Virus record (IMG/VR): IMGVR_UViG_2703718836_000005
Location: 1 to 25,124 of that record
Reading direction: 5' to 3' (one strand)
DNA from: a virus
Taxonomy: Duplodnaviria; Heunggongvirae; Uroviricota; Caudoviricetes
DNA: 25,124 nt
A model generated the notes under the pieces. It was not told the DNA's origin and did no database searches. It was given only the letters and a program-made list of their open reading frames with translations. Below, piece after piece: positions 8,580 to 10,849 of the stretch (position 1 is its first letter; the number at the start of each line of letters is the position of its first letter). Position numbers and translations under genes: made by a program.

Positions 8580-10594
8580 GAGAGCTGTGCTATGGATCTG
8601 TTTGCAGTGGAATTGAAGCCGCGAGCATTGCATGGGAACCGTTGGGTATGCGTCCGGCGTGGTTTGCTGAAATCGAGACTTTTCCATCTGCCGTTCTTGC
8701 GCACCGCTGGCCCCATGTCGCGAACCTTGGCGACATGACAAAACTCGCTCAAAAAGTCCAGGCCGGAGAAATTGAAGCCCCTGATGTGCTCGTCGGGGGT
8801 ACGCCTTGTCAGGCATTCAGTATCGCGGGCTTACGTGGTGGGCTTGATGATGAACGCGGCGCGCTAACTTTGAAGTATGTGGAGCTTGCAAATGCAATTG
8901 ACGACAAACGGTCTGAGTCCTTCCTCAAACCGGCAGTTATCGTCTGGGAAAATGTCCCAGGAGTCCTGTCATCAGCAGATAACGCGTTCGGATGTTTCCT
9001 TGCCGGATTGGCTGGAGAAGATGCGCCATTCGAACCAGGTGATCGACCTGAATCACGAAAAAGTAACACGTTCTGGCGGTGGGATGTCAAAACCGGTTGC
9101 CATGCTCCAAAGTGGCCGCAGTGTGGTTGTATTTATGGACCGCAGCGAAAAGTGGCCTGGAGAATCCTTGATGCCCAATACTTCGGAGTGGCACAACGAC
9201 GCCGACGCGTGTTTGTTGTCGCAAGTGCTCGAACAGACCTCGATCCCGCAACGGTACTTTTTGAGTTCGAAGGCGAGCGCCGGGATATTGCGCCGAGCAG
9301 AGGCGAGGGGAAGGAAACTACCAGATATACTTCAAACATCGCTATCAGATCTTGCGATGATACAAACATAATTGCCATGGCACATGGGCAAGGAGGGGCT
9401 GAGATAAAAACCGATAATTCGGCACCAACTTTGACATGTAACCATGAAGCACCAATTGTATTGCTCGGCGACGATAGAATGCGCCGTCTTACCCCTGTCG
9501 AATGTGAAAGGCTGCAAGGTTTTCCTGATTGGCATACGTTGATCCCTACGGGAAAGCGTAAAAAAGTTTCTTCAGATGAACTAGCATACCTTCGCAATAA
9601 CTATCCCGATTTAAACGAAGAAGAGGCCGCGATGCTTGCAGCTGACGGACCGCGTTACAAAGCGATCGGAAATAGTATGGCAATACCAGTAATGCGCTGG
9701 ATTGGCGATCGGATTACTAAGGCTGCATGTCGGCAAAAAGAAGGGAGTGAAACAAAAGAGCGAAAGGTTAAACCAGCGGCAGAATTCGAACGGCCCATAT
9801 TCAAATGGGCTGGTGGAAAATTTGGTGTTCTGGAACAAATCTTTCGCTATTTGCCAGAAGGGAAGCGCCTGATTGAACCTTTCGTTGGTGGCGGAGCTGT
9901 CTTCATGAATGCCGGATATCAGGAAAATCTGCTAAATGATGTGAATGCTGACCTGATTAACTTTTACAAGACTCTGCAACGCGAGGCGCATTCACTTATC
10001 ACTCTGGCACATCGTTTCTTCCTGGACTACAACACCCAGGAGGGATTCCTGGCAGTACGGAATGCGTTTAACAAACAAGTCTATGATGATTTACATCGCG
10101 CAGCGGCGTTTTTGTTCCTGAACCGACATTGTTTTAATGGATTGACGCGCTACAACCAGGCCGGTGAGTTCAATGTCGGGTATGGGAAGTATAAGTCTAC
10201 GCATTTTCCATTACAGGAGATGGAAGCCTTCCTCGGTGCGGAAGGGCGGTCTGAGTTTGTATGCGGTGATTTTGCAGCGGTGATTGAAGCTGCCGGAGAA
10301 GGAGATGTCATCTTTTGCGATCCGCCGTATGAACCGCTCCCCAATACAGAGGGGTTCACGAACTATTCCGGTCATGACTTTAAGTTTGAAGAGCAAAAAC
10401 GCCTGGTGTCTCTGTTGACGGATGCTCATCGCCGAGGTGCAAAGGTTCTCATTACTAACAGTGGCGCGCCAAACATCAGAGAACTTTATCAGGACAGTGG
10501 CTTCAGAGTGGAACCTCTTTTTGCCAGACGTTCTGTGTCTTGTAAGGGAGACACTCGTGGTGTTGCTCATGACGTTATAGTAGTATTGCTCTAA
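8576..10594 (+). CDS. dmt: bifunctional DNA methyltransferase: N-terminal C5-cytosine MTase fused to C-terminal Dam-like N6-adenine MTase
   Basis: GTG start overlapping the rdgC stop (GTGA). N-terminal half has C5-MTase motifs ([34 protein letters not shown]); C-terminal half has Dam motifs ([33 protein letters not shown]). Confidence 0.9.
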
Positions 10595-10614
10595 TAAATT
10601 TATTAGTGTAATAT
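10585..10614 (+). promoter_or_regulatory. perfect C1-operator-like 17-mer, overlapping inverted second site, and sigma70-like promoter
   Basis: 10585-10601 ATTGCTCTAATAAATTT is 17/17; 10596-10612 is a 15/17 copy on the other strand; -35 TTGCTC (10586-10591), 17-nt spacer, -10 TAATAT (10609-10614); the dmt stop codon TAA lies inside the operator. Confidence 0.6.
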
Positions 10615-10620
10615 AGAATC

Positions 10621-10806
10621 AATGAATCGTGATTTTTAGAGCGATTTAGCTGTTAGCCGCGACAGGCGCGGCGGTAAGCATGGCTGGGCCTAGTCCTCCC
10701 AGACAAACCACCGAGTTGCCAGGTTGACCATGCGCCTAAGTGGCAACTCCGAAGTGCGTAACGAGCTTCCATCCAGTTTGCCCATCTTCGGGTGGGCGTT
10801 TTTTTC
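10621..10806 (+). ncRNA. candidate structured small RNA or leader transcript ending in an intrinsic terminator
   Basis: Predicted start just after the -10 at 10609-10614; stems GCCGCG/CGCGGC (about 10648-10664) and AGTTGCCA/TGGCAACT (8 bp, about 10720-10750); ends in a 7-bp stem with UUCG loop and T-run; no convincing ORF. Confidence 0.3.
10780..10806 (+). terminator. intrinsic terminator (UUCG tetraloop hairpin plus T7 run)
   Basis: GCCCATC-TTCG-GGTGGGC followed by GTTTTTTT. Confidence 0.6.
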
Positions 10807-10849
10807 AGGGGTTTCGTCATGGTTAGCGACTTTGCGGCGGTTTAGCGAA

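Follow-up and report, generated by a model that had tools for sequence, protein, structure and literature searches.

The 25,124-nucleotide (nt) stretch of DNA considered in this work (IMG/VR virus record IMGVR_UViG_2703718836_000005, Caudoviricetes; hereafter, the window) is, as judged from homology, part of a P1-like phage-plasmid. Downstream of its DNA methyltransferase gene (dmt) lies a region which very probably represents a control region already known from the annotation of phage P1, i.e., the C1-repressed early control region of the ban operon, followed by an untranslated leader. The operator and the promoter bring nothing new, corresponding to the Op72/Oban of P1. The leader embeds a module of about 100 nt, which belongs to a covarying family of structured, pseudoknotted RNAs having neither an entry in Rfam 15 nor a description in the searchable literature (the original P1 genome paper not being covered). 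The same module constitutes the so far unexplained 5' two-thirds of the 190-nt form of DicF, a small RNA (sRNA); it also recurs in unrelated metagenomic phages.

Structure and covariation of the RNA module

The elements of the module recognized in the window are the following:

10656..10749, + strand: conserved pseudoknotted RNA module, ~100 nt (homology to a segment upstream of dicF, covariation, covariance model)
10656-10661 with 10667-10672, + strand: helix P2, 6 base pairs (bp)
10673-10675 (GGU) with 10710-10712 (ACC), + strand: helix Pa
10676-10683, + strand: junction, AAGCAUGG
10684-10688 with 10698-10702, + strand: helix P3
10713-10721 with 10741-10749, + strand: helix P4, closing an invariant 19-nt loop (10722-10740)
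10678-10683 (GCAUGG) with 10728-10733 (CCAUGC), + strand: pseudoknot between the junction and the P4 loop, 6 bp

Copies of the module were gathered from viral contigs, metagenomes, and genomes. Two blocks are nearly invariant across the members, that is, the junction GGYAAGYAUGGC and the 19-nt loop GGUUGACCAURCGCYUAAG, and the helices around them are wholly different in sequence. The deduced fold comprises an outer stem, which is clear in the types other than that of P1; an optional helix P2, often ending in a loop of the GNRA type; helix Pa, which is short (GGY with RCC) and encloses the junction and a variable hairpin (P3); and, directly adjacent to it, helix P4. The GYAUGG of the junction would pair with the CCAURC of the P4 loop, thus forming a pseudoknot. 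Since G-U pairs are frequent, the RNA can be assigned to the + strand.

The base pairs were counted on a motif-anchored manual alignment of 66 distinct sequences, used in place of the analysis performed with RNAalifold on a plain MAFFT alignment, in which the pseudoknot was mis-nested at the cost of P4. Standard pairs occupy 97.1% of the cells, versus 88.1% in shuffles and 35-52% when the partners are slid, and both sides change in 21 of the 35 pairs, with the proviso that the columns of P3 and of the outer stem were fitted by hand on the basis of the best complement, so that these counts lean towards structure. In P4, Pa, and the pseudoknot, it is the invariant motifs that fix the columns, which are free of this bias: P4 covaries at eight of its nine pairs, one pair of the pseudoknot is U-A in 57 sequences, C-G in six, and U-G in two, and one pair of Pa is U-A in 55 sequences and C-G in 11. 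The proposed structure is, in other words, accompanied by compensatory changes. In a group C copy (L278, positions 923-1026), the junction reads AAGUUGUGGC in place of AAGCAUGGC and the pseudoknot is kept by means of two wobbles (U-G and G-U), which provides independent support for this pairing. An earlier sequence-only reading of the window had supposed a structured transcript in this region and had indicated covariation and an Rfam search as ways of checking it; the former turned out to be strongly positive for the middle ~100 nt (the same 21 of 35 pairs), and the latter returned no match for the region. The z-score of the minimum free energy (MFE) of the whole 188-nt stretch is modest (-1.99), and it is the covariation, rather than this score, that really supports the structure.

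A covariance model (R1) built from the 66-sequence alignment assigned 44-97 bits to 28 true members, versus at most 22 bits to chance matches of the loop motif. In the window, R1 finds a single copy (10650-10756; 68.7 bits, expect value (E) 1.2e-15), a score that is partly obtained by construction, the sequence type of the window being among those used for building the model; independently of R1, the membership is supported by the blastn homology to the segment upstream of dicF described below. The junction, the loop, P4, Pa, P3, and the pseudoknot are all found in the window, and all the helices pair in its sequence. No copy was retrieved by R1 in phages HK022 and D6. The search against Rfam, at the gathering score on the window and 10 related loci and with E up to 10 on positions 10550-10960, disclosed no family matching the module; the families found elsewhere in those loci were DicF, tRNA, C4, isrK, STnc100, and abiF. 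A conserved outer stem was also sought in the P1-type copies, where two mutually exclusive candidates (GCGAUUU with GAAGUGC, and AGCUGUUAGC with GCGUAACGAGCU) were obtained, both of them mismatched in most of the P1 copies and absent from the copy of Escherichia marmotae.

Operator, promoter, and leader of the ban operon

The features surrounding the module, from the methyltransferase gene down to the end of the uninterrupted leader, are listed below (ORF, open reading frame; IS, insertion sequence):

8576..10594, + strand: dmt/dam, a C5 plus N6 DNA methyltransferase fusion (ORF list; Pfam PF00145 and PF02086)
10585..10601, + strand: C1 operator half-site Oban-a (formerly Op72a), ATTGCTCTAATAAATTT, 17/17, no mismatches
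10596..10612, - strand: C1 operator half-site Oban-b (formerly Op72b), inverted, two mismatches, 6-bp overlap with Oban-a
10586..10614, + strand: promoter P1ban, -35 TTGCTC (10586-10591), 17-nt spacer, -10 TAATAT (10609-10614), expected start near 10621
10623-10630 with 10641-10648, + strand: 5'-proximal hairpin, 8 bp including two G-U pairs (MFE fold)
10750..10779, + strand: variable spacer from the module to the terminator, with a 4-nt duplication with respect to P1, not conserved in the E. marmotae relative
10780..10805, + strand: intrinsic terminator, 7-bp G+C-rich stem GCCCAUC-UUCG-GGUGGGC (10780-10797), a G, and a run of seven T (T7, 10799-10805)
10806..10845, + strand: continuation of the ban-operon leader, ending with GGTTTAG at the IS insertion point (P1/P7 alignment)

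The 601 bases around the region share 95% identity with phage P1 and 92% with P7, and this match spans the annotated Oban-a and Oban-b operators, the promoters P1ban and P2ban, and the 'dicF-like region'; over positions 10600-10850, the identity with the Escherichia coli plasmid NZ_LC511659.1, which carries an IncY replicon, is 100%. Upstream, parB, parA, rdgC/hrdC, and dmt follow each other in the same order as in P1. With P1 dmt and P7 dam, the dmt gene shares 95% identity, and its stop codon (TAA, 10592-10594) falls within the C1 operator.

The counterpart of Oban-a is located in P1 at 68667-68683, where it is annotated as protein_bind 'phage repressor C1'; the same operator annotation exists in P7. 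In the P1 record (NC_005856), the C1-controlled operator Obanab is described as bivalent ("former Op72ab; controls expression of ban"), P1ban is given as a sigma-70 promoter (-35 at 68668-68673, -10 at 68691-68696), P2ban is a predicted promoter, and a misc_feature "dicF-like region" (68791-68892) is placed in the ban leader. The hexamers of P1ban, the spacer, and the operator pair are identical, column by column, among the window, P1, and P7, and all the sequence traits of the P1-type C1 operator/promoter class (Oban/Op72ab), including the bivalent layout over a sigma-70 promoter, were found in the window. C1 binding and repression are established at the P1 site, and we infer from this identity that they also apply to the Oban of the window. 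The operator-like motif over the dmt stop codon, its second inverted copy, and the TTGCTC-17-TAATAT promoter had all been pointed out by the sequence-only reading, and each of them was recovered, the promoter in the same position as the annotated P1ban. A generic promoter scan of the window did not list P1ban; TTGCTC matches TTGACA at just three positions out of six, which explains why it was missed. Sites with at most three mismatches to ATTGCTCTAATAAATTT are six in the window, versus 0.13 expected, and none of 100 shuffles reaches six. The C1-operator-like sites lying outside Oban, at 7309-7325, 19514-19530, 23138-23154, and 23187-23203 (one to three mismatches), presumably correspond to other early operators of P1.

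As to the transcribed part, the 5' hairpin (10623..10648) is conserved in P1 and P7, the variation in it being uninformative. The terminator scan lists an eight-pair stem (five G-C pairs) at 10779-10798, whose core is the 7-bp stem at 10780-10797; the 40 nt preceding the T run fold at -13.7 kcal/mol, and the G+C-rich hairpin followed by a U tract assigns this element to the intrinsic (Rho-independent) terminators. The terminator and the next ~40 nt are shared with phage D6, which is devoid of the module. Only mechanical ORFs, encoding 21-70 amino acids (aa), overlap the leader; one of them, of 69 aa (10724-10933, + strand), is interrupted with respect to P1/P7 by two indels (4 nt and 1 nt) and extends into the IS, and is thus not conserved. 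The 8-bp and 6-bp stems, the UUCG-loop terminator with its T7, and the lack of a credible ORF agree with what had been read from the letters of the window.

In P1 and P7, the leader is followed by the genes for tRNA-Asn and tRNA-Thr, tciABC, the gene for tRNA-Ile, and ban, which lies ~2.6 kb downstream. The only promoters annotated for the ~4-kb P1 stretch through ban are P1ban and P2ban, which implies that the terminator must be read through, at least part of the time. From its genomic context, the 'dicF-like' leader is, in both P1 and P7, the start of an operon and not a stand-alone sRNA gene. Hence, of the repressor-controlled sRNA or leader supposed by the sequence-only reading, the C1 control, the structure, the non-coding nature, and the terminator at the end are maintained, and the stand-alone sRNA gene is not.

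Beyond the leader, the window departs from P1 in the following features:

10846..12174, + strand: IS200/IS605-type element carrying tnpB only, 1329 bp; TnpB ORF at 10959-12134 (Pfam OrfB_IS605, Cas12f1-like_TNB, and HTH_OrfB_IS605)
12175..12510, + strand: remaining P1/D6-type untranslated leader; the tRNA genes that follow in P1/D6 are replaced here
12979-13914: predicted pPIWI-associating nuclease gene, split into ORFs 12979-13293 and 13327-13914 (Pfam pP_pnuc_1 plus pP_pnuc_2)

The P1 sequence GGTTTAG/AAACTGACC is split at 10845/10846 and resumes with AAACTGACC at 12175. The protein domains, the discrete insertion, and the restored flanking sequence are those of an IS200/IS605 tnpB element which, on comparison with P1, was cleanly inserted 40 nt downstream of the terminator and is not a part of the original system. 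Among the matches listed, it is shared by at least two sequenced plasmids (H21 and H22), most P1-like plasmids being without it. Having the same orientation as P1ban, tnpB may be transcribed by read-through from this promoter. In the window, neither tRNAs nor tmRNAs were detected by ARAGORN, and no DnaB-type ORF was seen among its ORFs. The region corresponding to 68.9-73.1 kb of P1 (the tRNA-tci-ban block) is replaced by other cargo, and the homology with P1 returns at 14124, inside dbn. The pPIWI-associated nuclease, split in the window, is encoded by a single 311-aa ORF in plasmid NZ_LC511659.1. The loss of the tRNA-tci-ban block is, on the same alignment, a replacement of cargo separate from the insertion of tnpB; the idea that the original target may have been displaced by the TnpB element is thus correct for the insertion into the leader and not for the loss of the downstream genes.

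Relation to DicF and distribution of the module

Positions 10657-10751 share 77-79% identity with a segment of ~97 nt that is present in 4243 of 5426 complete E. coli genomes (~78%) and in many lambdoid phages. In E. coli K-12, this segment is located in the Qin prophage, between ydfC and dicB and immediately 5' of dicF, the Rfam DicF match lying just downstream. By homology, the module corresponds to the 5' part of the 190-nt species of DicF known from Qin-type prophages. It is known that this species is generated by RNase III and accumulates stably in E. coli in stationary phase, and that, in Qin, RNase E cuts between the segment homologous to the module and DicF (PMC10448788). In Qin (L003, 2479-2490 and 2700-2725), a conserved long-range complement of CGUGCGCU with AGCGCACG (GUGCGCU.../...AGCGCAC) brackets the module plus DicF; it is probably the RNase III substrate from which the published ends of the DicF species (190-nt 5' end, 72-nt 3' end) originate.

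The Rfam DicF family (RF00039) has no match in the window at the gathering score, nor on positions 10550-10960 with E up to 10, and the same library finds DicF in Qin with 76.7 bits; the RNA of the window was therefore rejected as a member of the DicF family on the basis of this model. What P1 and the dicF locus have in common is, as far as the alignments tell, the upstream module and not the sRNA. The part of the P1 leader labelled as 'dicF-like' is thus not DicF-like in the regulatory part, and constitutes a structured RNA of its own. In the literature delimited above, neither the P1 dicF-like region nor the segment upstream of dicF turned up as the subject of a study.

Apart from the types found in E. 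coli and P1, the family has very divergent members (L015, L248-L255, L258, L264, L267, L271, L278, and L284), which come from contigs with a G+C content of 34-64%. Each phage has a single copy of the module, located on the sense strand of an early operon. All the enterobacterial members have an intrinsic terminator 38-70 nt past it, and the segment bearing the terminator has been swapped among lineages, being represented by DicF, by at least five DicF-like variants, or by the hairpin of P1; different 3' modules of sRNAs have been exchanged behind a constant 5' module. In 13 divergent members, the module sits in an intergenic leader, and in some of them an ORF begins 30-70 nt after it. Among the P1-like copies, the spacer leading from the module to the terminator is not conserved, so that the P1 RNA is without a conserved DicF-like seed. 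On the whole, the module is a discrete, mobile RNA cassette. When the divergent metagenomic loci were compared by blastn with the phage collection, no match was obtained, and the gapped-pattern scan of 596 Gb of genome contigs, performed with a weak pattern, yielded almost exclusively chance matches, the real ones being those in Escherichia albertii and Escherichia ruysiae.

Some single members deserve a mention. In the E. marmotae copy (L303), the loop reads GGCUGACCAU, a rare change in an otherwise invariant loop. In a GC-rich metagenomic viral contig (L251, 1622-1757), an abiF RNA (Rfam RF03085, 61.3 bits) is located directly past the module, a further instance of a different small structured RNA behind it. 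In a low-GC metagenomic member (L267), a near-consensus promoter (TTGACA-17 nt-TAATAC) with a perfect palindrome, TGATAACGTTATCA, is found ~30-75 nt past the module, which is, in this case, upstream of a regulated promoter and not downstream of one.

Possible function of the module and comparison with known systems

The composite explanation that best accounts for the region, and that we consider reasonably probable, is that of a C1-repressed ban control region whose leader carries a probable cis-acting module. In the lysogen, C1 would bind both overlapping Oban half-sites, occluding P1ban; once C1 is inactivated, transcription would start near 10621, and the transcript would form the 5' hairpin and then the pseudoknotted module before meeting the strong terminator at 10780-10805. 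Terminated transcripts would be structured RNAs of ~185 nt, counterparts of the long 190-nt DicF, and those reading through would extend into the tRNAs, tciABC, and ban in P1, and into the tnpB IS and the nuclease pseudogene in the window. This division between termination and read-through follows from the annotation of P1 and from the published transcripts of Qin, since in both of them genes known to be transcribed from the upstream promoter lie beyond a terminator. In cis, the module might influence the elongating complex or the transcript, easing the passage of the terminator and of the long untranslated region of RNA genes, or it might otherwise set the ratio between terminated and read-through transcripts. 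The fact that other lineages place the module in an intergenic leader before an ORF suggests that the function resides in the module itself and is exerted in cis on a longer transcript; moreover, its presence in mRNA leaders without any sRNA favours a role in cis. The invariance of its nucleotides across distant hosts points to a conserved cellular partner, such as RNA polymerase. Among the cis effects, anti-termination is favoured by the constant position of the module upstream of untranslated RNA cassettes and terminators to be passed; as a specific function, suggested by this context, it remains a tentative proposal with a limited chance of being correct. Still more speculative, and rather unlikely, is the extension drawn by analogy with the put RNAs of phage HK022, according to which the module would be an undescribed class of phage cis-acting RNA, put-like but unrelated to put, modifying RNA polymerase to make it run past both intrinsic terminators and Rho sites. 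If true, this might explain how transcription initiated at Op72 gets past a strong terminator and through ~2.6 kb of RNA genes, mostly untranslated, as far as ban, how dicB is expressed past the DicF terminator, and why untranslated RNA cassettes accompany the module in the phages of many hosts.

Several observations weigh against such a role, in addition to the lean of the hand-fitted columns mentioned above. In the 13 divergent members with an intergenic leader, no terminator exists within 220 nt of the module. Phage D6 has the same terminator, downstream leader, and tRNAs as P1 without having the module, and in a D6-like plasmid of E. marmotae the module is an insertion of ~125 nt exactly 5' of the D6-type terminator (L303, 1505-1640, versus L247, 2440-2530), which indicates that the module is not indispensable for the expression of the operon. 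The major ydfABC-dicF transcript of E. coli K-12 is the terminated one (PMC10448788). Finally, put is present in each early operon of HK022, i.e., twice per phage, and the module once.

The same data might be read in favour of a stand-alone, C1-controlled sRNA, whose terminated product of ~185 nt would act in trans by binding or titrating a host protein, or as an Hfq/ProQ-type RNA like DicF, the read-through being incidental. The strong terminator 30 nt past the module, the stability of the equivalent 190-nt DicF species in stationary-phase E. coli (PMC10448788), the movement of the module as a cassette, and its frequent position beside other small RNA genes (DicF variants, abiF RNA, tRNAs) would all fit this possibility; so would the invariance of loop and junction across hosts of 34-64% GC, which suggests a conserved cellular partner. 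However, roughly half of the distinct lineages lack a terminator within 220 nt and have the module directly in front of an ORF; the spacer, which is the one stretch that is obviously single-stranded, shows no conservation among P1-like elements, arguing against a DicF-like seed; and the Rfam DicF model is not matched even with E up to 10. Furthermore, the search for antisense complementarity or mimicry between the invariant loops and the E. coli 16S, 23S, and 5S rRNAs and three tRNAs (one rrn operon) revealed nothing above chance, the longest matches being of 7-8 nt and the duplex energies falling inside the range of the shuffles. A trans-acting product is, on this basis, conceivable, and we do not regard it as the probable function. 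An element for RNA processing or stability, shielding the downstream RNA from 5'-end-dependent decay or positioning the cuts of RNase III or RNase E, would be in agreement with the Qin long-range complement flanking the module plus DicF, which fits the published RNase III cuts (190-nt 5' end and 72-nt 3' end), and with the RNase E cut between the module and DicF; it appears improbable, since a protective hairpin or a nuclease site would need neither a pseudoknot nor ~30 nucleotides invariant across distant hosts, the RNase III duplex lies outside the module, and the P1 module already lies close to the 5' end, preceded by a separate hairpin.

A riboswitch-like sensor, in which a host metabolite or ion would set the termination at the adjacent terminator, might be evoked by the aptamer-then-terminator layout of the P1-like and lambdoid members and by the complex pseudoknotted fold with its invariant unpaired nucleotides. 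This is very hard to reconcile with the exchange of the terminator segments among lineages, where no alternative pairing between module and terminator co-varies, with the many members lacking a terminator, and with the fact that no known riboswitch class matches, so that we attach hardly any probability to it. The preferred reading remains that of a module acting in cis within the C1-controlled ban leader. Control of elongation by the module would make it the second case in nature of anti-termination achieved by RNA alone, and binding of a host factor would make it a phage non-coding RNA of wide occurrence. In either case, it offers a defined element that researchers working on DicF and on P1 can delete.

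The comparison with HK022 putL and putR holds as an analogy only. In both cases, a temperate phage has a cis-encoded structured RNA of ~75-100 nt in an early operon for which a protein antiterminator appears to be lacking, and two adjacent stem-loop arms precede terminators that have to be passed; put, however, has a triplex-containing stem I and no pseudoknot between loop and junction. The module was rejected as a put homologue in the absence of a common motif and of a covariance-model match in HK022: its motif is not found in the HK022 immunity region, and the best R1 match in that phage (12.2 bits, E 0.97) lies outside the put sites. Among the closest known systems is the P1 ban leader itself (NC_005856/AF234172), with which the window shares the position at the dmt stop codon, the leader, and the terminator, at 95% identity; differently from P1, the window has a 4-nt duplication in the spacer, T7 instead of T6, a tnpB IS 40 nt past the terminator, and other cargo in exchange for the tRNA-tci-ban block. 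As for the 190-nt form of DicF, its 5' ~100 nt are homologous to the module of the window and have the same helices and pseudoknot, a terminator lies 40-70 nt past the module, and further genes (dicB or ban) are located beyond it. The 3' part is what distinguishes the two, being in Qin the 53-nt DicF with its ftsZ- and manX-pairing sequences and in P1 an unrelated hairpin preceded by a non-conserved spacer; moreover, the Qin unit lies ~0.8 kb into its operon and is excised by RNase III, whereas that of P1 starts ~36 nt from the promoter.

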